Assembly: GCA_963848295.1 (NCBI GenBank)
Contig: CAWKDB010000010.1
Location: 768,001-832,000, forward strand
Length of the DNA: 64,000 nt
Direction: 5' to 3'
Source: an uncultured delta proteobacterium
GTDB lineage: Bacteria > Myxococcota_A > Polyangia > Haliangiales > Haliangiaceae
The notes under the pieces were generated by a model. The model was not told the origin of the DNA. It saw nothing but the letters and a program-made list of their open reading frames with translations, and made no database searches. Below, piece by piece: positions 31,346 to 44,172 of the stretch (its first letter is position 1; each line of letters opens with the position of its first letter). A program made the position numbers and the translations under genes.

Positions 31346-33262
31346 ATGGGCGCTCGACTGCACGCGGCCGTCGCGGCGCTCGTCGTCGCGTGCGGGCCGC
31401 CGCCGGGCGCGACGCTGCGACTGTCCGAGCTCGAGCTCGCGGTAGAGCGGCGCGATGTCACCGCGGTGCGGGCGATGCTCGATCGCGGCGTTGCGGTCGA
31501 TGCCGCGGACGCCAACGGCGACACCGCGTTGATCCGCGCGGCGATCACCGGCGACGCCGAGCTCGTGTCGCTGCTGCTCGCGCACCACGCCGATGCGAAG
31601 CACGCCGACCGGAACGGCGCGACCGCGTTGCACTTCGCGATCGACGATCGCGCGAAGACCGAGGCGCTGCTCGCCGCCGGCGCCGACCCGAACGCGACCG
31701 ACAACACCGGCTACACGCCGCTGATGACCGCTGCGAATCGCGGCGACGGCGGCGACGTCGTCGAGTTATTGCTAGACCACGGAGCCGATCCGAACCATCG
31801 GGCCGACGACGAGATGACACCGCTGATCCTGGCCGGCGGAGGCGATCTGCGCTCGGTCAAAGCATTGCTCTCGCACGGAGCGGATCCGCGGGCGCACACG
31901 AGCGCCGGGTTCGACGCGCTGCACGCAGCGGTCGTGATCGGCAACACCGAAGCAGCACGCCTCCTTGTCGCTCGCGGCGCCGATGTCAATGCGAAGGCGG
32001 GCCACGGACGGACGCCGCTGATCGAAGCCGCGGAGCAAGGTCGGCCCGATCTCGTCCAGCTGCTGATCGCTCACGGTGCCGATGTCAACGCCCGCGAGAC
32101 GTTCAGCGCGACGACGGCGCTGATGGAAGCGGCGGCCTCCGACCGCGCCGCGCCGTCGGTGATCGACGCGCTGCTCGCGGCCGGTGCGAAGGTCGCCGTG
32201 CGCGATGACGAAGACGCGAGCGCGATCACGTGGGCGTTGCGCCGCGGCGAGCTCGGGCTCGCGACCGCGATCAAGGTGCACGATCCGGCGCACGGCCCCG
32301 ATCGCAACCCGGTGTCTCGCGCGGAGGGTGCGCTCGTCGGCGCGGGCAACACGACGCGAGCCGCGCTCGATCGCGCGATCCGGTTGCTCGAGCGCAGCCA
32401 GCCGGCCTTCCGCGAGCGCGCTGGATGTCCGTCGTGTCATCACGACGCGCTGCCCGCGATGGCGATCGCTCGTGCCGGCGCACGCGGCATCGCGATCGAT
32501 CGCGACGCGCAGTTGACCGAGATGCGCGCGACCGCGGCGGCCCTCCGGCCGCACCGCGACGAGTACGTCGAGGGCGAGGGCTTCGCCGATATCCTCGAGC
32601 CGGCGTACTTGCTCGTCGGGCTCGACGCGAGCGGTTATCCGCGCGACGACCTCACCGACGCGATGACGCGCTACCTCGAGCTCCAGCAACGCGATGACGG
32701 CGGCTGGCGGACGTGGATGCAACGCATCCCGATCGATGGCAGCGACGTCACGCTCACCGCGCTCGCGATCCGCGCGATCACGCGTTACGCCCTGCCCGGC
32801 CGCACCGCCGACACCACGGCGCGAGTCCTGCGCGCGCGCGACTCGCTCGTGCACTCGGTCGCGACCACGACCGAAGACCTGACGTTCAAGGCGCTCGGCC
32901 TGCGCTGGACCGGCGCGATCGGCGACGACCTCGCGACCACGCTCGCGACGCTGGCCGCGACTCAGCGCGACGACGGCGGGTTCGCGCAGCGCAGCGGGCT
33001 CGCGAGCGATGCCTACGCGACCGGCGAAGCGATCATCGCGCTGCGCGACGCCGGCGGCGTTGCCGCGAACGACCCCGCGATCGTTCGCGCGGTGCGATTT
33101 TTGCTCGCGACGCAGCGAACCGACGGCAGCTGGTTCGTCGCGACGCGCGCGCTGCGGTTTCAGCCGTTCCTCGACAGCGGCTTCCCTCAGGGTCGATCGC
33201 AGTACAGCTCTGCGGCGGGCACCGCGTGGGCCGCGATGGCGCTCGCCGCCACGACCGAATAG
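31346..33262 (+). CDS. Ankyrin-repeat protein fused to prenyltransferase/squalene-cyclase-like domain
   Basis: About 8 G.TPL..A ankyrin repeats; CPSCHH; QRDDGGW / QRTDGSW QW-motifs; possible lipobox VVAC. Confidence 0.85.
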   Translation: MGARLHAAVAALVVACGPPPGATLRLSELELAVERRDVTAVRAMLDRGVAVDAADANGDTALIRAAITGDAELVSLLLAHHADAKHADRNGATALHFAIDDRAKTEALLAAGADPNATDNTGYTPLMTAANRGDGGDVVELLLDHGADPNHRADDEMTPLILAGGGDLRSVKALLSHGADPRAHTSAGFDALHAAVVIGNTEAARLLVARGADVNAKAGHGRTPLIEAAEQGRPDLVQLLIAHGADVNARETFSATTALMEAAASDRAAPSVIDALLAAGAKVAVRDDEDASAITWALRRGELGLATAIKVHDPAHGPDRNPVSRAEGALVGAGNTTRAALDRAIRLLERSQPAFRERAGCPSCHHDALPAMAIARAGARGIAIDRDAQLTEMRATAAALRPHRDEYVEGEGFADILEPAYLLVGLDASGYPRDDLTDAMTRYLELQQRDDGGWRTWMQRIPIDGSDVTLTALAIRAITRYALPGRTADTTARVLRARDSLVHSVATTTEDLTFKALGLRWTGAIGDDLATTLATLAATQRDDGGFAQRSGLASDAYATGEAIIALRDAGGVAANDPAIVRAVRFLLATQRTDGSWFVATRALRFQPFLDSGFPQGRSQYSSAAGTAWAAMALAATTE

Positions 33263-34516: not shown

Positions 34517-36598
34517 CTACGGTCTGCCAACCGACGCGAAGTAGTTGCGCAGGATCGTCGTCTCGGTGTTCACGGCCGCGAGCGAGCTCTTGCCCTCGCC
34601 CGCGTTGATCGCGACGTCGAGCTTCGTGATGCACTGCGGGCAAGGCAGCTTCGCGATGTGCGGCAGCGCGAGCAGGATGCTCTGGCGAGTGGTCGGATCC
34701 GTGGTCGCGGCCGCGTCGAGCAGCGCGTCGGTATACGAGCTCGCGCTCGCGCCTTGCTTGCCGAGCTCGAGCATCGCGCGCTCGATCGCAGCGGCGACGA
34801 GGCCGCGCTTGTCGTCGTCGGACCAGGTCGCCGCGTCGGGGATGTACTTCGCGACGTTCGCGATCTCCTCGTCGGGCTGGAGCGCGAGGCTCGCCGCGTA
34901 GCACGCGCCATCGTCCTTGCAGCGCAGCGCGATCTCGATGCGCGCGATGTGGCTCTCCAGCATCCGGGCGTACGACAGGTACGCCTTGGCCGCGTCATCG
35001 GCACGCTTGAACGGTGCAACCAGGACCTGTTGCTGCTTCCTCGCCGCTTTGAAATCGTCCTGGAGCTTCTCGAGCGTCGCGTGGTCCGGGCTCTTGGCCT
35101 TCGCCGCGTCGAAGGCCGCTCGCTTAGCGGCGAACGTAGCGTCCGCGGCGTCGGCCGCGTGCTTCGCGGCGGCCGCTCGAGTCGCTTGCTTTGCCGATGC
35201 GTCGAGCTGGGGCTGCGCGAGCTTGTGAAACGTCGCGATGTCTTTCGCATCGCGCGAGATCCGCGCGAGCGCGGTCGCCGCTTCCATCCGGAGGTCATCA
35301 TCGCCGGCGCTGCCGAGCGCGAGCGCGGCGAGCTTGTCGGTGCCGGTGGCGTCACGCGTCACGAACGGGTAGACACTGAGCGCCAGGATCGTATCCGGAT
35401 CGGCCGGCTTGCCCTTGACCCAGTGCTCGCGCACCGGCACCGCAGCCAAGGGCGAGCCGATCTTGCGAAGCGCATCGAACAGCGCGGTGTGCTGGGTCGT
35501 GCCACTCGGCTGATCATCAGCGTAGTACTGCGGCTCGGCCGGACGCTTCAGCGCAGCGAGCAGATCCGGCACGCTCGCCGGGTCGCGAAGATCGCCGAGC
35601 ACGACCGCGGGGTAGAAGTCCTTGGCCGAGACCGGCAGGCAGCTCGCCCCGGTATACTCGCCGTGGTCGCCGCAATATCGGTCGAGGTGCTGGGTCGCAA
35701 ACAGCGCGTTGACGTCGGCGTCGGTGCCGCGCAGCGCCGCGACTAGCACGGCTTGCGCAGCCGGCCCGATCGCGACCAGTGCGCGCCGGCTCATCATCAT
35801 CAGCTCCGGCGACCGATACATCGCGAGCACGAGCGGCTTCGCGGCGCTCGCGGCACGCAGCTCACCCAGCGCGTTGATCGCGGCGCCCGTCGTCTGCAGG
35901 AACATCATGTAACCGTCGACGGAGCCGCGGGCCATCGCCGGGTCCTTCACGGTCCTCGGATCGGGCGGCGGCTCGCGCGAGATCACTCCGACCAGCGCCG
36001 CCGTCGCCCGATCCGCGCCGTCGGCGGAGAACTTGCCGAGCGCACGCAGCGCGGTGACGTGAAGCGCGATCAGGTGCTTGGTCGGAGCCTTGCCGACGAC
36101 GGCGAGCAACGCATCGAGCCCGGCGGGCAGCCTCGCCTCGCCGAGCGCTTTGGCCGCTTCCGTCGCGCTGTCGATCGAGCGCGGGTTCCCGTCGTCGGCG
36201 TCGGCGATCACCTTGGCAAGGAACGGCACTGCCTGGTCCCAGCTCGCCGGCCGGCCCTCGGTCTCGTAGGTGACGAAGTAGCCCTGCTTCGCCTGCTCGG
36301 GCGTCAGCGGGCGCGCCAGCGCGGTGACGAGCTCGACGACCCGCGCCGGCCTGCCGAGCTCGACCCAGGCATCGGCGAGCGGCTGGATCGCCGCCGGATC
36401 GCCGATCTGTTCGAGCACGGAGACCGCGCGCTCCGACATCCGCGGATCCTTGAGCTTCGGAATCCAGGTCTTCGCGGCGAACGGGTCCTCGCCGCCCGAG
36501 CCAGAGCCACGAGCCGCGCTCCCGGTCGTGGCCGGCGCCGCCGACTCCTTCGTTCCACAAGACGCAATGACGAGAGCGAGAGCGAGCACGTCGCGCAT
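34517..36598 (-). CDS. HEAT/armadillo-repeat lipoprotein
   Basis: IASC lipobox; repeated A..ALG.L....A...L HEAT-like units. Confidence 0.78.
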   Translation of the reverse strand: MRDVLALALVIASCGTKESAAPATTGSAARGSGSGGEDPFAAKTWIPKLKDPRMSERAVSVLEQIGDPAAIQPLADAWVELGRPARVVELVTALARPLTPEQAKQGYFVTYETEGRPASWDQAVPFLAKVIADADDGNPRSIDSATEAAKALGEARLPAGLDALLAVVGKAPTKHLIALHVTALRALGKFSADGADRATAALVGVISREPPPDPRTVKDPAMARGSVDGYMMFLQTTGAAINALGELRAASAAKPLVLAMYRSPELMMMSRRALVAIGPAAQAVLVAALRGTDADVNALFATQHLDRYCGDHGEYTGASCLPVSAKDFYPAVVLGDLRDPASVPDLLAALKRPAEPQYYADDQPSGTTQHTALFDALRKIGSPLAAVPVREHWVKGKPADPDTILALSVYPFVTRDATGTDKLAALALGSAGDDDLRMEAATALARISRDAKDIATFHKLAQPQLDASAKQATRAAAAKHAADAADATFAAKRAAFDAAKAKSPDHATLEKLQDDFKAARKQQQVLVAPFKRADDAAKAYLSYARMLESHIARIEIALRCKDDGACYAASLALQPDEEIANVAKYIPDAATWSDDDKRGLVAAAIERAMLELGKQGASASSYTDALLDAAATTDPTTRQSILLALPHIAKLPCPQCITKLDVAINAGEGKSSLAAVNTETTILRNYFASVGRP

Positions 36599-36645
36599 CG
36601 CGCGAAGCTACTACGTGTTACGACACGCGGGATGAGCTGGTCGCG

Positions 36646-37308
36646 ATGAAGAAGCTCGCGTTCCATCCCCTCGATCCGCGCAGCGCGCGCGCCCGCCTCG
36701 TGCTCGCGGCGGCGCTCGGCGTCGTGGCGTGGTTCGTCGAGCCGGCGCGGTTCGCCGCATCGACGCGCGCGGTGATGGCGTGGGACGCCTCGGGCCTGAC
36801 GCTGCTCGTGCTCGGCGTCTTGATCTCGCGGACGACGCCGGAAGGCACGCGCCGCCGCGCCGCCGCACGCGATCCTGGCCGCACGGTCGTCTGGCTCGTC
36901 GTACTCGCGGCGAGCGTGGTCAGCTTGTTCGCCGCCACCGTCGTCGTGCGCGGGTCGAACGACCTGCCTGCTGCCGAGGGACGCCTCGTGCTCGTGCTGA
37001 GCGTCGCGACCGTGTTGATCTCGTGGCTGCTCACCCACACCGCGTTCACGCTGCGCTACGCCCACTTGTACTACCGCGGCGGTCTCGACGACGAAGGCGG
37101 GCTCGATTTCCCCGGCGGTGCCAAGCCGGACGACTACGACTTCGCGTACTTCGCGTTCACGATCGGCATGTGCTTCCAGGTCTCGGACATCACGATCTCG
37201 AATCGCATCGTGCGCCGCACCGTGCTCGCCCACGCGTTCCTGTCGTTCCTCTACAATACGGTCGTGCTCGCGCTCGTCGTCAACCTGATCGTCGGCCACG
37301 CGAGCTAG
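36646..37308 (+). CDS. DUF1345 family membrane protein
   Basis: SWLLTHT.F.L.YAH.YY, PDDYDFAYFAFTIGMCFQVSD, H..LSF.YN. Confidence 0.9.
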   Translation: MKKLAFHPLDPRSARARLVLAAALGVVAWFVEPARFAASTRAVMAWDASGLTLLVLGVLISRTTPEGTRRRAAARDPGRTVVWLVVLAASVVSLFAATVVVRGSNDLPAAEGRLVLVLSVATVLISWLLTHTAFTLRYAHLYYRGGLDDEGGLDFPGGAKPDDYDFAYFAFTIGMCFQVSDITISNRIVRRTVLAHAFLSFLYNTVVLALVVNLIVGHAS

Positions 37309-37316
37309 GCAACTCG

Positions 37317-38372
37317 ATGATCTTTCGCCAGCTCTTCGATCAGGGTTCGAGCACGTACACGTACCTGCTCGCCGACGAGCAGACCCGCGACGCGGTGCTG
37401 ATCGATCCGGTGTTCGAACAGCACCTGCGCGACGCGGCGTTGCTGCGCGAGCTCGGGCTCGCCCTGCGCTACACGCTCGATACGCACTGCCATGCCGATC
37501 ATGTCACCGGTGCGTGGCTGATGAAGGCGGCGATGGGTAGCGAGATCGCGCTGTCGGCGGTGTACGCCGCCGAGCACGTCGACCGCCCGCTCGGCCACGG
37601 CGACACGATCCGCTTCGGCGACTGTTCGCTCGAGGTTCGCGCGACGCCGGGCCACACCGCCGGATGCCTGACGTTCGTCACCGCCGATCACACGACCGCG
37701 TTCACCGGCGATGCGCTGCTCGTGCGCGGTGCCGGCCGCACCGATTTCCAGCAGGGCGACGCCCGCACGTTGTTCCGCTCGATTCACGACCAGCTGTTCA
37801 CGCTCGATGACACTTGCGCGGTCTATCCAGGTCACGATTACGAAGGCCGCACCGCGACGACGATCGGCGAGGAGCGCCGCCACAATCCGCGGATCGGCGG
37901 CGGCGCGCGCGAAGAGGACTTCGTCGGCTACATGACGAACCTCGGCCTGCCTCATCCGAAGCAACTCGCGATCGCGTTGCCGGCGAACCTGCGCGCCGGA
38001 CAGCCCGAGGGCGGCGGCGGCCCGCTGGTCGCGAGCTGGGGCCCGGTGGTCGTGACGTACGCCGGGATGCGAGACATCGCGGCGGAGTGGGTCGCGACCC
38101 ATCGCGACGAGGTGCACGTCCTCGATGTCCGCAGCGGTCCGGAATTCTCCGGCGACCTCGGTCACGTCCATGGCTCGCAATTGATCCCGCTCGACGAGCT
38201 GCGCACGCGCCTCGCCGAGGTCCCGACTGATCGGCCGGTCGTCGTCGTGTGCCAGACCGGCGCGCGCTCGGCGATGGGCGCGACGATCCTCGCGAAGGCC
38301 GGAGTGGACCGCGTCGCGAGCCTCGCCGGCGGGATGATCCGGTGGCGCGAGCTCGGGCTGCCTCGCGAGTAG
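37317..38372 (+). CDS. Persulfide dioxygenase (ETHE1-like)-rhodanese fusion
   Basis: SSTYTYLL, DTHCHADHVTG, TPGHT.GC, GRTDFQ, PGHDY; C-terminal DVR..E...GH..GS and CQTGARS rhodanese loop. Confidence 0.92.
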   Translation: MIFRQLFDQGSSTYTYLLADEQTRDAVLIDPVFEQHLRDAALLRELGLALRYTLDTHCHADHVTGAWLMKAAMGSEIALSAVYAAEHVDRPLGHGDTIRFGDCSLEVRATPGHTAGCLTFVTADHTTAFTGDALLVRGAGRTDFQQGDARTLFRSIHDQLFTLDDTCAVYPGHDYEGRTATTIGEERRHNPRIGGGAREEDFVGYMTNLGLPHPKQLAIALPANLRAGQPEGGGGPLVASWGPVVVTYAGMRDIAAEWVATHRDEVHVLDVRSGPEFSGDLGHVHGSQLIPLDELRTRLAEVPTDRPVVVVCQTGARSAMGATILAKAGVDRVASLAGGMIRWRELGLPRE

Positions 38373-39356
38373 TCAGCGCAGTCGGATCAAGCGCGCGACG
38401 CCGAGCGTCGCCGATAGCTCGAGCCGCGAGTCCGAGTCGCCGAGGCGATGCTCGCCGGCCGCGAGGTCGAACGTGAACGCCCAGCGCGGGCTCATCGCGA
38501 ACCAGATCCCGGCGCGCCCCGTCGCGGTCCAGCCGGTCGCGTCCCACGGCGTGTAGCCCGCGAGCGCGGTCAGCTGCACTGCGGCGAGGCCACCCGCGAA
38601 CGGCTGTCGCAACACGACCGCGGCGTCGAGATCGAGCGGTGCCTGCCGCGGCTCGAAGCCGAGCCACGGTCCGACGAGGACGTGGTCGCCGAGCGGAAAC
38701 AACGCGCCGAGCGCCGCGATGCCGGTGCCGTGGCTCACGCCGCTTTCGCGGATCGCGCCGCCGCCGAGCTCGAGCCGGATCTGCGCGCGATCGACGGCCG
38801 CGAACCCGGGCGCTGCGGCGGCCTCGCCCGCGGTGCCGAGGGTGCGATCGAGGATCGCGAGCAGCTCGGGCGCGCCGACGCGATCATCTTTGACCGACGC
38901 GATCTTGCGATAGGCGATCCGACCGTCGCGGCCGATCACGGTGACACCGGGCAGCGCCGCCGAATCCGACGACATCCCGGCGTACGCTCGCGACACCGCG
39001 CCATCGGCGTCCGATAGCAGCGGAAACCAGATCCCGAGGTCGGCCGCGAACGCGCGCGAATCCTCGGGAGCGTCGAGGCTGATCGCGAGCAGCGTCACGC
39101 CGCGCGTGCGGAACGCCGCTTGGTTACGAGCCAGCTCGCCGAGCTGGTACTTGCACCACGGTCACCAATAGCCGCGATAGAACACGAGCGCGACCGGACC
39201 GTGCGCGAGCTCGTCGCCGAGCGTCACCGTGTGGCCATCCTGCGCCGGCAGGGCGAACGGCGGCGCGACCGAGCCGACCGTGACGGTCGCGGTCGACACG
39301 ACGTGCAAGGACGTCACACAACCGGAGGCGGCAAGAGCGTAAAGGGCGGTGCGCAC
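38373..39356 (-). CDS. Putative selenoprotein: lipoprotein signal + AhpC/TSA (peroxiredoxin-like) UxxC domain + beta-barrel-like C-terminal domain (327 aa, Sec at codon 65)
   Basis: Track ORFs 39162-39356 and 38373-39098 are in one frame, separated only by TGA at 39162-39164. Read-through gives VFYRGYW-U-PWCKYQLGEL...LLAISLD. Confidence 0.88.
39131..39147 (-). promoter_or_regulatory. Candidate bacterial SECIS hairpin
   Basis: CCAGCTC-GGC-GAGCTGG; stem starts 14 nt after the UGA; loop starts with G, 21 nt from the UGA. Confidence 0.7.
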
Positions 39357-39386
39357 GCGATCAGTGTCTCACGTGATCGACGCCGG

Positions 39387-41279
39387 CTAACGCGCGAGCG
39401 CGGTGCGGATCAGATCCTTCGGTACGGTCGTCGCCGGCGCGCCTTGCGGGAACCAGCTCGCGAGATCGGCGTCGAGCCCGAGGCCGTGCATGTAGTTGTA
39501 GAGCGCCTTGCGCAGGCCCTCGCCGAGCTGCTCGTGGTTCGTGCCGGTCGGGTCGTCGAACGCGAGGTCGTTGCGCGCGAACGTGATCGCGGGCTCGCGA
39601 TGCAAGCGGATGCCATAGAGCTCGGGCTGCTTGCCGATCGGGCTGTGCGCGGTCGCGGCGAAGCGATGCCAGAACGCCGATTGCACGCAGCCGGCTTCGA
39701 ACAGCTGGCGGACGCGTTCGAGCGAGTCGATCGTCTCCTGCGTGGTCTCGGTCGGAAAGCCGTACATCAAGTACGCGTGGACCATCACGCCGGCGTCGCT
39801 GAACGCGCGCGTGACCCGCGCGACCTGTTCGACCGTGACGCCCTTATCGATCAGGGCGAGCAGGCGATCCGAGGCGACCTCGAGGCCGCCGCTCACCGCG
39901 ACGCAGCCGGAGCGCGCGAGCAACGCCGCGAGCTCGGGCGTGAACGTCTTCTCGAACCGGATGTTGCCCCACCACGTGATCACGACGCCGCGCGCGATCA
40001 GCCGCTCGGCGAGCGAGCGCAACCCGGCGGGCGGCGCCGCTTCGTCGACGAAGTGAAACCCGGTCTGCCCGGTCTCCGCGACGATCGCCTCGATCCGATC
40101 GACGAGCAGGTCGGCGTGCACCGGATCGTAGCGCGCGATGTAATCGAGCGTGACGTCGCAGAACGTGCACTTCTTCCAGTAACAGCCGTGCGCGATCGTG
40201 AGCTTGTTCCACCGGCCGTCGGACCACAGCCGATGCATCGGGTTCAGCATCTCGAATAAGTTCAGGTAGCGGTCAAGCTGTAGCCCAGCGTAGGTCGGCG
40301 TTCCGGCGTCGCGCAGCGGCACGTCGTGAGCGGCGTCGTCGGTGCGTAGCTCGACGCGATCGCCGGCGCGCACGAACGTGCGAAACAACGGCTTGGCTGG
40401 ATCGCGCAGGTGATCGATCAACGCGAGCAGCGGCCGCTCCCCGTCGTCGAGCGTGATGTAGTCGACGTAGTCGAACACGCGCGGATCGGAGAGCTCGCGT
40501 AGCTCGGTGTTCACGAACCCGCCGCCGATCGCGATCCGGACGTGCGACGCCACCGCCTTGATCGCGCGCGCGATGCGGAACGCTCCGTAGACGTTGCCGG
40601 GAAACGGCACGGTCAGGCCGACGAGCTCCGGCTCGTGCTCGGCGTAGAGCTCGCGCGCGATCTCGTCGAGCGTTCCGTCGACGATCGTCGGCTCGCCTTC
40701 GAGCTCGTCGTGCAGCGCGTCGAACGTCGGCGCGCTCGCGGCCAGGTGCTCGCCGTAACGCGACAGCTCGAAGTGCGGCTGGATCCCTTCGCGCACGACG
40801 TCGGCGAGATCGTCGATGTACAGGCTCGCGAGGTGCTTCGCGCGGTCCGCGACGCCGAGCGCGCCGAACGCCCAGCCGAGCGGATCCGCGGCGCCGCGCG
40901 CGATCGCCGCGAACCGCGGGCCTTCGGGCAAGAACGCTCGCGTCGCGATCCGCATCGCGATCGCCGGGTCGCGCCCCTGCAAGAACGCGACGACCGCGTC
41001 GATCGTCTCGACGTAGCGCGCGGCATTCGGCAAGAAGCTCGCGATCGATTGCGGCGGCGCTTCGTCGACGTCGTCGGCGCGCTCCGCGAGCTCGGCCGCG
41101 ATCGCTTCGATCCCTTCGCGCGAGAACACGCGCAGGAACAGCTCGATCGCCGGATCGGCCTGGCGGACGTCGAGCCCGCGCGCCTCGGCGTGCTGGCGCA
41201 GGAACCCGGTCAAGTACGCCGTCGCGGGATACGGCGTGTTGAGCTGCGTCATCGGCGGCGTGAGGAGAAGGATGCGCAA
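39387..41279 (-). CDS. B12-binding domain radical SAM protein
   Basis: PPMTQLNTPYPATAYL, GCYWKKCTFC (CxxxCxxC), FHFVDEAAPP, HAYLMYGFP. Confidence 0.9.
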   Translation of the reverse strand: MRILLLTPPMTQLNTPYPATAYLTGFLRQHAEARGLDVRQADPAIELFLRVFSREGIEAIAAELAERADDVDEAPPQSIASFLPNAARYVETIDAVVAFLQGRDPAIAMRIATRAFLPEGPRFAAIARGAADPLGWAFGALGVADRAKHLASLYIDDLADVVREGIQPHFELSRYGEHLAASAPTFDALHDELEGEPTIVDGTLDEIARELYAEHEPELVGLTVPFPGNVYGAFRIARAIKAVASHVRIAIGGGFVNTELRELSDPRVFDYVDYITLDDGERPLLALIDHLRDPAKPLFRTFVRAGDRVELRTDDAAHDVPLRDAGTPTYAGLQLDRYLNLFEMLNPMHRLWSDGRWNKLTIAHGCYWKKCTFCDVTLDYIARYDPVHADLLVDRIEAIVAETGQTGFHFVDEAAPPAGLRSLAERLIARGVVITWWGNIRFEKTFTPELAALLARSGCVAVSGGLEVASDRLLALIDKGVTVEQVARVTRAFSDAGVMVHAYLMYGFPTETTQETIDSLERVRQLFEAGCVQSAFWHRFAATAHSPIGKQPELYGIRLHREPAITFARNDLAFDDPTGTNHEQLGEGLRKALYNYMHGLGLDADLASWFPQGAPATTVPKDLIRTALAR

Positions 41280-41319
41280 CGCGGGTCCATCGTAGCTGGC
41301 TGAGGTACGGTCGGCCACG

Positions 41320-42153
41320 ATGCGGCTCAACAAGTACCTCGGCGAGAGCGGCCGATGGTCGCGGCGCGAGGCCGACACCCTGATCGAACAAGGCCGGGTC
41401 ACGCTCAACGGTGCACCGGCCCCGCTCGGCGCTCAGGTCAACCCCGGTGACGAGGTCAAGGTCGACGGCGACCTCGTCGGCGGCGCGCGCAAGCTCGAGC
41501 GCCCGGTCTACATCGTGCTCAACAAACCGGTCGGCGTGACCTGCACGACCGAGCGTCACGTCGAAGGCAACATCATCGACTTCGTCGACCACCCCGAGCG
41601 GATCTTCCCGATCGGCCGGCTCGACAAGGACTCCGAAGGCCTGATCCTGCTGACGAACGACGGCGACATCGTCAACGAGGTCCTGCGGTCCGAGCACGAC
41701 CACGACAAGGAGTACGTCGTCGCGGTCGATCGCGGACTCGACGCAGACTTTGCCTCGAAGATGGCCAACGGCGTGCGGCTGTCGGAGGGCACGACGAAGC
41801 GCTGCAAGGTCGTGGTCCACGGCCCCAAGACGTTCACGATCGTGCTGACCCAAGGATGGAATCGTCAGATCCGCCGGATGTGCGAAGCGTTCGGCTATCA
41901 GGTCGTGGCGCTCGAGCGCGTGCGGTTCATGAACGTCGTGCTCGGCAACCTCGCGATCGGCCGATGGCGCAACCTCACGCCGCAAGAGCTCGCAGGGCTG
42001 AAATCCGCGGCGCCGCCTCGCAAGCCCGGAGCACAGCCTCCGAATCCCGGACACGCTCGTCCGAATCCCGGACACGCTCGTCCGAATCCCGGACACGCTC
42101 GTCCGAGTCCCGGCAGTCATCGCGGTCGCAGCGGGCGGCGCGGCGGGCGCTGA
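41320..42153 (+). CDS. rluF: 23S rRNA pseudouridine synthase (RluF/RsuA family) with S4 domain
   Basis: MRLNKYL...SRREAD, LNKPVGV, IGRLDKDSEGL, QGWNRQIRRM. Confidence 0.85.
   Translation: MRLNKYLGESGRWSRREADTLIEQGRVTLNGAPAPLGAQVNPGDEVKVDGDLVGGARKLERPVYIVLNKPVGVTCTTERHVEGNIIDFVDHPERIFPIGRLDKDSEGLILLTNDGDIVNEVLRSEHDHDKEYVVAVDRGLDADFASKMANGVRLSEGTTKRCKVVVHGPKTFTIVLTQGWNRQIRRMCEAFGYQVVALERVRFMNVVLGNLAIGRWRNLTPQELAGLKSAAPPRKPGAQPPNPGHARPNPGHARPNPGHARPSPGSHRGRSGRRGGR
42040..42113 (+). repeat. 21-bp coding tandem repeat (3 perfect copies + 1 partial; PNPGHAR)
   Basis: ccgaatcccggacacgctcgt at 42040, 42061 and 42082. Confidence 0.95.
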
Positions 42154-42372
42154 GTACGCGTTCGCGGCAAGCCTACACCGGCCGACACGACAGGCCGGCG
42201 GTTACGATCGGGGTAACCAGTTTCTGCGATTCTTTACCCCGCTTCGGATAGCGATCGGGTGTTCTCGACGAGGAATCGCGGATGGTCATCGACGTTCATC
42301 GTTCGCGATGTGCGACGTGCGCCGCTCGTGGCGCACCTAGCTTCGCCGTCCCAGATCAGTACATTGGATCCA

Positions 42373-44172
42373 GTGAAGCTTCACGCTGTAATCGTTGTCG
42401 CTGCGTCGTGCATCCTCGGCTGTGGCAGTCACCAAGCCGACAATTCTTCTCCGGATGCCGGCATCGTGCTCGACGACGCCGCGGTCGATGCGCCCGGTGG
42501 CCCGACGTGCGGCAACGGCAAGCTCGATCCGGGCGAGACCTGCGACGACGGCAACACCACGTCGGGCGACGGCTGCTCGTCCAATTGCTCGATCGAGACC
42601 GGCTTCGCATGCGGTGAGCCCGGCACGTTGTGCTTGTCGACCCACACCTGCGGCAACGGCATCGTCGAGGATCTCGAGGGCTGCGACGATCACAACACGA
42701 CGAGCGGTGACGGCTGCAGCTCGAGCTGCCAGCTCGAAGCCGGTTGGACGTGTCCGGTCCCCGGCATTCGGTGCTCGGCCGCGAGCTGCGGCGATGGCAT
42801 CGTCGCCGGGTTCGAAGAGTGCGACTTGGGCGCGGCCAACGGCACGGGCGCCGGCTGCACCGCCGACTGCAAGATCCAACAAGGCTGGGACTGCCCGCCG
42901 ATGACGACGTGCTCGCAGACCACGTGCGGCGACGGGGTGGTGCAGGGCTTCCCGTACGGCACCGAAGAGTGCGACGACGGCAACGACGACCTCGGCGACG
43001 GCTGCGACCCGCTGTGTCAGCGCGAGCCGATCTGCGCGACCGACGGCACGTGCACCGCGGTGTGCGGCGACGGCGTGCTGCAAGCCGGCGAGCTGTGCGA
43101 CGACGGCAACCTCGAAAACTTCGACGGCTGCTCGAGCACGTGCATGCCGGAGACCGGCTTCACGTGCACGCCGGTCACCGATGGCGAGCCGGCGACGTTG
43201 GCGGTCACGATCGTCTACCGCGACTTCATCGGCGACGACATCGCAGGTGGCTTTGTCGACTTCGAGAACAAGAACGGCGCGGAGAGCGGCCTGCTCGGCC
43301 CGCTGTACACGTCGACGCTGGATAGCGATGGCAAGCCGGTCCTGACGAAGGCGAACCCGAGCACGGTGAGCAGCTCCGCGACGTTCGCCGAATGGTATCG
43401 CGACGAGCCGGGCACGAACCTCACGATCCCGTCGACCCTCACGCTGACCGATCAGGGCTCGAACACGTACCTGTTCGATAGCCAGGCGTTCTTCCCGCTC
43501 GACAACCTCGGCTGGGTCGCGCTCGGCGACGAGCCCGCGCGCGACGGCGGCCACAACTTCAGCTTCACCTCGGAGCTCGCGTACTGGTTCACCTGGAGCG
43601 GCACGGCGAACGAGAAGCTGACGTTCCGCGGCGACGACGACGTCTTCGTGTTCATCAACGGCCGGCTCGCCGTCGACCTCGGCGGCGTGCACAGCGCGGA
43701 GACCGGCTCGGTCACGCTCGACGCCGCGACCGGCGCGAAGCTCGGGATGGTCGCGGGCGGCACCTACCAGGTCGATGTGTTCCAGGCCGAGCGCCACACG
43801 AGCGGGTCGTCGTATCAGCTCACGCTGGAGGGCTTCAACGCGCCACATAGCCAGTGCGTGTCGACGTGCGGCGATGGCATCACCTCGTCGCAAGAGGCGT
43901 GCGACGACGGCACGAACGACGGTAGCTACGGCTCGTGCACGCCGGATTGCCTCGGCTTCGGCCCGCGTTGCGGCGACGGCATCGTGCAGCCCGATCACGA
44001 ACAATGCGACGACGGCACGAACACCGGCGGTTACAACCACTGCAATCCGAACTGCACGCTCGGCCCGCGCTGTGGCGACGGCATCGTCCAGACCGCCGAT
44101 GGCGAGGCCTGCGACGACGGCAACGACGATCCGAACGACGGCTGCGACAACTGCCAGGTCGTGATCCAGTAG
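42373..44172 (+). CDS. Lipoprotein with Myxococcus Cys-rich repeats (DUF4215-like) and fibro-slime/PA14-like domain
   Basis: ILGC lipobox; many CGNG...E.CDDGN...GDGC repeats; HNFSFTSE, F.GDDDVFVFING.L.VDLGGVH, QAERH. Confidence 0.92.
   Translation: MKLHAVIVVAASCILGCGSHQADNSSPDAGIVLDDAAVDAPGGPTCGNGKLDPGETCDDGNTTSGDGCSSNCSIETGFACGEPGTLCLSTHTCGNGIVEDLEGCDDHNTTSGDGCSSSCQLEAGWTCPVPGIRCSAASCGDGIVAGFEECDLGAANGTGAGCTADCKIQQGWDCPPMTTCSQTTCGDGVVQGFPYGTEECDDGNDDLGDGCDPLCQREPICATDGTCTAVCGDGVLQAGELCDDGNLENFDGCSSTCMPETGFTCTPVTDGEPATLAVTIVYRDFIGDDIAGGFVDFENKNGAESGLLGPLYTSTLDSDGKPVLTKANPSTVSSSATFAEWYRDEPGTNLTIPSTLTLTDQGSNTYLFDSQAFFPLDNLGWVALGDEPARDGGHNFSFTSELAYWFTWSGTANEKLTFRGDDDVFVFINGRLAVDLGGVHSAETGSVTLDAATGAKLGMVAGGTYQVDVFQAERHTSGSSYQLTLEGFNAPHSQCVSTCGDGITSSQEACDDGTNDGSYGSCTPDCLGFGPRCGDGIVQPDHEQCDDGTNTGGYNHCNPNCTLGPRCGDGIVQTADGEACDDGNDDPNDGCDNCQVVIQ

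Follow-up and report, generated by a model that had tools for sequence, protein, structure and literature searches.

A conserved UxxC selenoprotein gene predicted to join a lipoprotein redox domain to an outer-membrane-type β-barrel in an uncultured member of the Haliangiaceae

Peroxiredoxin-like (Prx-like) selenoproteins with a UxxC or UxxU motif (U, selenocysteine, Sec) fall in PF00578, and their UxxC members are classed as thioredoxin-like thiol:disulfide oxidoreductases (PMC1088965, PMC13188914). Table 1 of PMC13188914 lists 119 families, among them the Prx-like UxxC/UxxU proteins, the GSU2204 family (MtrB/PioB barrel) and an FCYXU TonB-dependent receptor, so selenoproteins of the outer membrane are already known. 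Described fusions of Prx-like proteins involve DsbC, a distant Secretin_N domain and unknown Cys-bearing domains (PMC2398784, PMC9402790); PMC5029168 and PMC5877670 provide context only for the selenoprotein comparison. The subject of this study is a gene in a 64,000-nucleotide stretch (the window) of contig CAWKDB010000010.1, from the assembly GCA_963848295.1 of an uncultured delta proteobacterium placed in the Haliangiaceae. Its product shares with the Prx-like selenoproteins the PF00578 domain, the UxxC motif, a UGA codon with a downstream selenocysteine insertion sequence (SECIS) element, and Cys homologs. It differs from them in ending in an eight-stranded barrel, and such fused forms branch apart. 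The barrel is free of Cys (three Cys/Sec per protein in 19 of 19 orthologs), in contrast to the unknown domains of the known fusions, and it is small and joined to a thioredoxin-fold domain, where the GSU2204 family and the FCYXU receptor have large barrels. No fusion of a thioredoxin fold to a small barrel was found among the 119 families in the available part of PMC13188914 or in the literature searched, which included few subscription papers. The recoding is of a known kind and the redox domain is a member of a predicted family already described; the lipoprotein-plus-barrel layout, as predicted from sequence, appears to be new.

The gene occupies 39356-38373 of the minus strand as a single frame of 327 codons, interrupted by one TGA at codon 65. 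It starts with GTG at 39356-39354, the recoded TGA lies at 39164-39162, and the true stop, also TGA, at 38375-38373. An earlier note on this DNA, made from the letters and a list of open reading frames (ORFs), described two ORFs in one frame split by a single TGA at 39162-39164, in the first Cys position of FYRGYW-*-PWC. Both observations hold, the strand, absent from that note, being minus; U65 aligns with Cys in the full-length homologs P0037, P0047, and P0048 and also in single-domain homologs. A plus-strand reading of 38373..39356 was rejected, as it contains no relevant frame. The active-site stretch of the selenoprotein is VFYRGYW-U-PWCKYQLGELAR, and the 21 codons from the TGA to the GTG (39098) of a downstream 241-residue ORF read PWCKYQLGELARNQAAFRTRG, just as the earlier note described. 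The features of the gene are as follows.

38373..39356, minus strand: whole coding sequence, 327 amino acids with predicted Sec65 (full-length orthologs)
39318..39356, minus strand: predicted signal peptide of lipoprotein type, residues 1-12, and lipobox Cys13 (Arg2 and Cys13 invariant)
38838..39278, minus strand: AhpC/TSA (Prx-like, thioredoxin-fold) redox domain, residues 27-173 (PF00578, model, fold match)
39162..39164, minus strand: in-frame TGA, U65 of U-P-W-C (conserved TGA; Cys in homologs)
39153..39155, minus strand: Cys68, presumed resolving cysteine (invariant)
39131..39147, minus strand: predicted bacterial SECIS hairpin with 7-bp stem and GGC loop (39140-39138), encoding QLGEL (conservation and SECIS constraints)
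38949..38951, minus strand: Pro136, at the thioredoxin cis-Pro and peroxiredoxin catalytic-Arg position (invariant; structural alignment)
38385..38786, minus strand: predicted eight-stranded outer-membrane-type β-barrel, residues 191-324 (models, fold matches, loop and turn lengths)
38373..39098, minus strand: 241-residue ORF from standard gene calling, without signal peptide and active site (ORF list)

The host genome (7.78 Mb, 85% complete) encodes selB (293.7 bits), selA (528.2 bits), selD (326.5 bits, Cys type), and tRNA-Sec (67 bits, also called by ARAGORN), all above their family cut-offs; the search for these genes had been proposed in the earlier note. TGA is the most frequent stop codon, ending 1905 of 3622 long ORFs, which argues against its general reassignment, and the only tRNA with a TCA anticodon is tRNA-Sec. 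Reading of the UGA as Trp, Cys or another residue, whether by genome-wide reassignment or at a leaky stop, has no specific evidence in its favor; besides these two observations, the position aligns with Cys in homologs and conservation of a SECIS-type hairpin is confined to the TGA forms, and we regard the chance of such a reading as negligible.

Codon 65 is TGA in all 19 full-length orthologs from other genomes, at identities from 65% down to 38%: 17 same-genus copies, L049, which nests among them in the tree, and L197. It is never TAA or TAG, nor is it the TGC or TGT whose presence in all close relatives would have told against the earlier note. The 17 full-length same-genus copies, each with exactly one TGA, come from 36 genomes of the genus, of which 34 have selA and 30 tRNA-Sec; 16 of the 17 carriers have selA, 15 have tRNA-Sec, and each has at least one of the two. 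A metagenome scan confirmed 326 relatives, and among the best 80, which were kept and scored, 72 have TGA (61 extending into the C-terminal domain) and eight have TGC or TGT, the latter being short proteins that never extend to the barrel. The orthologous genome and metagenome sequences are kin rather than independent trials. One genome, G010, supplies the single-domain row L040 of the hairpin alignments and tree, the loci L068 and L093, and one line of each genus tally; none of the main conclusions depends on it. A barrel-only match (residues 216-326) at G021:C262:4079-4381 in a fragmented genome is probably a contig-edge piece and is not counted among the 17 copies.

Sequence on both sides of the TGA is under purifying selection. 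The ratio of nonsynonymous to synonymous substitution rates (dN/dS) in the redox part after U is 0.08-0.28 in the five closest of eight pairs and 0.23-0.51 in three more distant ones; for the C-terminal part it is 0.12-0.43 in the five closest pairs, which settles in the affirmative whether the downstream half is constrained, a doubt raised in the earlier note. These results bear on the possibility that the TGA is a real stop, marking a pseudogene, a sequencing error, or a 64-residue lipoprotein followed by a separate 241-residue protein. TGA is after all the commonest stop here, three of the 61 barrel-reaching metagenome loci (L145, L153, and L179) have a further downstream break, and the assembly contains frameshifted genes elsewhere, for example at G000:C2:655900-659200, so that sequencing error had to be excluded by comparison. 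An identical TGA in 19 of 19 independent assemblies and purifying selection on either side of it are hard to reconcile with a stop, which would moreover interrupt the thioredoxin fold right at the active site and deprive the barrel of a signal peptide; the downstream starts called in databases also vary. We consider a real stop scarcely credible. The gene at G000:C2:655900-659200 encodes a molybdopterin oxidoreductase (nitrate-reductase-like), and its many frameshifts suggest local assembly errors. A 151-nt contig of one DNA run, identical over 39016-39166, was not used as evidence, as it barely passes the TGA and may come from the source sample. None of the sequencing runs listed as carrying the sequence is an RNA run.

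The hairpin CCAGCTC-GGC-GAGCTGG at 39147-39131 has the perfect 7-bp stem and the 14-nt spacer after the TGA that the earlier note gave, and its loop begins after 21 nt. Bacterial SECIS constraints given in PMC13188914 are a loop of 3-9 nt, a stem of 4-16 bp, a G in the first two loop positions, a distance of 16-37 nt from the UGA, and a minimum free energy of at most −7.5 kcal/mol. The present hairpin lies within these bounds, with a 3-nt GGC loop, 7 bp, 21 nt, and −10.0 kcal/mol. Taken alone it is modest to weak evidence, and its stability by itself is not convincing: in a shuffle test the first 42 nt behind the TGA gave z −2.0, a value that 7 of 200 shuffles reached, and 70 nt gave +0.45. 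Genome-wide, hairpins with a stem of at least 7 bp and a GG loop 18-24 nt downstream follow 5/1370 TGA, 4/2383 TAG, and 1/389 TAA codons flanked by coding-like sequence. The hairpin stands far above chance because codon and stem are both conserved. In 23 aligned Sec genes (19 fused, four single-domain) the stem pairs in 160 of 161 cells, against 15-46% for slid controls, and it is intact in every TGA-bearing fused form. Two non-sister lineages (L035 and L036) replace a G-C with an A-U pair by two synonymous substitutions (CAG to CAA, CTG to TTG). Leu72 is CTC in 19 of 19 orthologs, the only one of 15 conserved Leu columns without synonymous variation, and Glu74 is likewise always GAG. The metagenome scan pattern fixed the QLGE residues and left their codons free; the identical 7-bp stem is present in all 72 TGA loci and in L197, with variation in the third loop base (37 GGC, 36 GGT), whereas in the eight Cys loci, where the amino acids also differ, 3-5 of the seven stem positions pair. 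An Rfam scan of 36000-42500 (E up to 5) gave no match. We assign the GGC hairpin as the predicted bacterial SECIS element of the Sec65 gene, and the UGA at codon 65 is, to judge from these patterns, almost certainly a conserved Sec codon served by this GG-loop hairpin 21 nt downstream and by a full Sec machinery. Conservation of TGA and stem, the machinery, and purifying selection together support one predicted selenoprotein of 327 residues, as the earlier note had proposed.

Its expectation that standard annotation would split the gene was also borne out. All 25 database matches to the C-terminal part are 233-247 residues long and begin downstream of the motif. In a search of 1.84 billion proteins, 58 of the best 150 representatives carry the barrel, and 54 of these begin downstream of the active-site position, as judged from the protein only, so that some may be contig-edge fragments. 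Full-length fused homologs with CxxC are P0037, P0047, and P0048 (the last labeled peroxiredoxin family protein, Myxococcales bacterium); a fourth, P0034, known from one short contig, carries Ser in place of Sec (SPWC). In a tree of the redox domain, 17 fused forms make up one branch (100/99) apart from 20 single-domain relatives, and this branch splits into Sec forms (91/88) and Cys/Ser forms (98/94). The tree used 13 of the 19 Sec rows, skipped one motif-less row and has no fixed root, hence it gives no direction of change. A search of 300 other genomes sampled from the phylum yielded the barrel fusion just once, in one more genome of the same genus. Single-domain UxxC and UxxU relatives occur in related genomes (L037-L041 and L043); one of them, L041 (G052:C154), from a genome of the same class, reads FYRGFW-U-PF-U, a UxxU motif with two Sec codons.

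Residues 27-173 match PF00578 with 98.9 bits against a cut-off of 26, all 19 orthologs match this family too, and the model of this domain has a predicted local distance difference test score (pLDDT) of 77-97 in blocks of 10 residues. Its nearest folds are AhpE (Z 22.2, RMSD 1.7 Å, 150 residues aligned), BcpB (Z 21.5) and Bcp1 (within the same group at Z 21-22), followed by ResA (Z 16.4) and PGFS, a CxxC Prx-like endoperoxide reductase (Z 15.2). The motif W-U-P-W-C is a thioredoxin-like UxxC in place of TxxU, and Cys68 is invariant in all 19 orthologs and the four Cys/Ser homologs. The PxxxT/S element of peroxiredoxins is absent: FYRGYWUPWC aligns with FFPAAFSPVC of 2cx3, placing Sec at the peroxiredoxin Thr position. 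Pro136, which is invariant, corresponds to the Pro of ResA and to the catalytic-Arg site of BCP (2cx3) and AhpE (4xih, R116A). The protein thus resembles AhpE, BCP (PrxQ), and the Sec peroxiredoxins (PxxxTxxU) in fold, and differs from them in lacking PxxxT/S, in having Sec away from the peroxidatic position, and in the Pro at the catalytic Arg site. These three features mark it as a Prx-like UxxC protein in the sense of PMC1088965 and not as a peroxiredoxin; a true peroxiredoxin (AhpC, BCP/PrxQ, AhpE or PrxU) was ruled out, both PxxxT/SxxC(U) and the catalytic Arg being missing. The domain is of the peroxiredoxin-like kind named in the earlier note, with catalytic residues that are thioredoxin-like. 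All NCBIfam scores are below cut-off, those of peroxiredoxin and BCP models far below; the best, to the SelL-related NF040769, is 52 bits against a curated cut-off of 120, and membership of that family was likewise rejected. Elsewhere in the genome, 17 of 18 matches to AhpC/TSA domains have no internal stop.

The same gene, recoding, and anchoring could instead serve a selenium peroxidase acting on H2O2 or lipid hydroperoxides at the outer membrane. Its best folds (AhpE, BcpB, and Bcp1) and the match to PGFS would suit this role, Sec supports peroxidase chemistry without the peroxiredoxin Arg in glutathione peroxidases, and a membrane tether would suit lipid substrates. The missing PxxxT/S, the Pro at the catalytic Arg site, and the low scores to peroxiredoxin and BCP families speak against it, as does the classification of UxxC Prx-like proteins as thiol:disulfide oxidoreductases (PMC1088965 and PMC13188914), and we regard a peroxidase as unlikely, if still worth considering. 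Other close parallels are TlpA/ResA/DsbE and the lipoprotein thioredoxins (ResA and pneumococcal Etrx2), whose WCxxC-type motif and cis-Pro align with the present protein, whose folds match it at Z 14.6-16.4, and which are also tethered to a membrane outside the cytoplasm. They have Cys where Sec is predicted here, and are held by an inner-membrane helix or a lipid only, in contrast to the outer-membrane barrel predicted here.

The N-terminus is basic and followed by a short hydrophobic stretch ahead of Cys13, and all 19 orthologs share Arg2 and Cys13, in agreement with a lipoprotein signal by a relaxed lipobox pattern. Of 68 further loci with sufficient DNA upstream, 65 show this pattern and the other three have a Cys at the same place by eye; the lipobox Cys is also present in the Cys/Ser homologs. 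A Cys at position 13-14 is common in this genome (76 of 339 lipobox-like ORFs). Two LspA proteins, BamA, and two membrane domains of DsbD type are encoded there as well.

Neither Pfam nor NCBIfam has a family that the C-terminal 140 residues match above cut-off. An AlphaFold2 model from the 19-row alignment (pLDDT 86.9, predicted template-modeling score, pTM, 0.74) has eight long strands over residues 191-324; the domain modeled alone reaches pLDDT 91.9 and pTM 0.84. In a fold search of 48,161 chains, the top eight hits, at Z 14.1-18.0, are without exception transmembrane barrels: Legionella porin III (18.0), NspA (16.9, RMSD 2.0 Å, 134 residues aligned), a designed transmembrane barrel (16.5), OprF (15.7), PagL (15.4), OmpA (15.2), OmpW (15.0), and a Thermus outer-membrane protein (14.1). 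Foldseek agrees, its top ten rows being transmembrane barrels. Compared with NspA, OmpA/OprF, OmpW, PagL, and OmpX/Ail, the fold is alike (Z 15.0-16.9, RMSD 2.0-2.6 Å, 121-136 residues aligned) at identities of only 9-14%; those barrels stand alone or are followed by a peptidoglycan-binding domain, whereas here a predicted lipidated redox domain precedes. On one face the three turns keep the same length throughout the 19 orthologs, and the four hairpin loops opposite vary, which is the usual pattern of outer-membrane barrels, with the fixed turns periplasmic and the variable loops outside.

A soluble ligand-binding barrel of avidin or lipocalin type on an ordinary lipoprotein would account for the matches of soluble barrels at Z 9-12.7 and for the missing terminal aromatic residue in this copy. 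Yet no soluble barrel exceeds 12.7 in the search that ranks transmembrane barrels highest, the strands show alternating hydrophobic and polar columns, and the fixed turns contrast with variable loops; a soluble barrel is thus very improbable. On the basis of conservation and structure models, we predict as very probable that a lipoprotein signal directs export of the protein, that Cys13 is acylated, and that the C-terminal eight-stranded barrel inserts in the outer membrane. The earlier note had the UxxC selenoprotein right and missed both the lipoprotein signal peptide and the outer-membrane-type barrel.

Taken as a whole, the gene probably encodes a periplasm-facing, outer-membrane-tethered thiol-disulfide reductase using a Sec/Cys pair. 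Both ends of eight-stranded outer-membrane barrels face the periplasm, which would place the UxxC domain under the outer membrane. A lipid at Cys13 and the barrel would hold this domain at both ends, against the inner face of that membrane, and the barrel would most simply be an anchor. The Sec65 selenolate would attack an oxidized sulfur bond of envelope proteins, either a disulfide or a sulfenic acid, and Cys68 would then resolve the mixed Se-S bond. The reduced form would be restored by a membrane protein of DsbD/CcdA type, of which two are encoded, as with TlpA/ResA-type reductases. For this mechanism, reduction of disulfides or sulfenic acids on envelope proteins, the balance tips only slightly in favor.

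Several observations weigh against the reductase reading or parts of it. The closest redox-domain folds are peroxidases (AhpE 22.2, BcpB 21.5), ahead of ResA (16.4), which makes a peroxidase role possible, and the Ser of P0034 suggests that the Sec-position residue is dispensable in some lineage. The lipobox A-S-G-C, with only 12 preceding residues, is short by textbook rules, and residues 1-15 of the model are of low confidence. For the barrel, the best family match is to OMP_b-brl (PF13505), at 16.9 bits against 28.7 and in the Cys homolog P0037 only, and one of the 19 orthologs hits MipA at E 0.029; a sequence search of the PDB with the barrel profile gave a best E of 0.1, to an unrelated entry; this copy ends in RLIRLR, with no terminal aromatic; and barrel dN/dS is 0.59-0.91 in the three most distant pairs, where dS is probably underestimated. 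Nor was any conserved neighbor found that points to a partner or substrate, any one neighbor being common to at most 7 of 84 loci.

The barrel may have a role beyond anchoring. As a pore or binding site it could guide a small substrate from outside, whether polysulfide, selenite, a metal thiolate or a lipid peroxide, to the Sec; alternatively, the cell could display the redox domain at its surface. A lipid anchor alone would tether the protein, making the barrel look redundant as an anchor; the residues R190, Q192, P221, G229, R250, P252, A287, P290, and G319 are invariant at or near the redox-facing turn side; the pTM of the whole model, 0.74, suggests a defined domain arrangement; and OmpW and PagL, among the matches, are functional eight-stranded barrels. 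Folding explains the invariant turn residues equally well, however, the short loops vary, divergence is faster in the barrel than in the redox domain (mean column identity 43% for the barrel against 54% for the whole protein), and no transport or metal gene is among the conserved neighbors. A pore, binding site or surface display seems improbable, and we give an equally low chance to the more specific proposal that a substrate from outside (lipid peroxide, polysulfide, selenite or prey-derived oxidant) passes through the barrel, or is presented by it, to the Sec directly under the barrel's periplasmic mouth. Were it true, such a single-chain outer-membrane redox station would represent a novel kind of fusion between selenoenzyme and channel in soil Myxococcota, within a small selenoproteome in which a candidate rhodanese lipoprotein and a DG-like zinc-ribbon protein were otherwise found and the usual formate dehydrogenase was not.

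The gene would add a new architecture to the bacterial selenoproteome, a predicted lipidated UxxC thioredoxin-fold domain with a small outer-membrane-type barrel, and its natural Sec, Cys, and Ser versions allow direct comparison. The recoding itself is textbook; it is the layout that gene-calling software cuts in two, hiding the selenoprotein in databases. A widespread soil-type group of Myxococcota appears to keep the Sec machinery and to use it for envelope redox proteins, and the tight SECIS geometry across the genus, with the loop 20-21 nt after the UGA, can be used to find further selenoproteins.

Two other candidates in the genome, from unrelated families, have this geometry, a hairpin loop 20-21 nt downstream of a conserved TGA. 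The first is a rhodanese-domain lipoprotein (G000:C2 near 299280, minus strand; L052:1665-2066) with the motif FYCHNES-U-HAC and, 20 nt after the TGA, a hairpin CCGCCGC-GGTC-GCGGCGG with covarying stems. TGA is present in 23 of 26 loci, all with the hairpin, and three Cys loci have no hairpin at that spacing. Its CxxxxUxxC/S arrangement differs from the five rhodanese forms as written in PMC13188914, and is nearest to TsoB UxxxxU (41.5 bits against a cut-off of 805). The second (G000:C4 near 233830, plus strand; L054:878-1231) is a 117-residue protein with CPPGAGKG-U-G, a C-terminal zinc ribbon, and a weak match to NF049953, selenoprotein DG (45.4 bits against 130). It occurs in 33 of 36 genus genomes, 31 of these copies having one TGA (28 of the 31 scored directly, two more by eye after an alignment shift, and one unaligned), with a covarying CCTCCT(G/C) hairpin. 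This protein may be what keeps the Sec trait in the genus. No Sec-containing formate dehydrogenase was found among the four PF00384 matches in the 85% complete genome.

Next to the fused gene, a metallo-beta-lactamase/rhodanese fusion, persulfide dioxygenase-like by its domains (37308-38372, plus strand), lies tail to tail with the selenoprotein stop (38372/38373), and a B12-binding radical SAM gene (39387-41408, minus strand) ends 30 nt upstream. Co-transcription with the latter is possible, since the two genes are on the same strand 30 nt apart; a scan of 38000-41700 gave no promoter-like site and one terminator-like site, at chance level. These two neighbors and the RluF-like, DUF1345, and HEAT-like ones were not found within 1.5-3 kb of 18 orthologs. 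The RluF-like pseudouridine synthase ORF (41320-42153) has near-identical PNPGHAR peptide repeats at its end (42065-42127), and at 31346-33262 on the plus strand ankyrin repeats are fused to squalene-hopene-cyclase-like (prenyltransferase barrel) segments.

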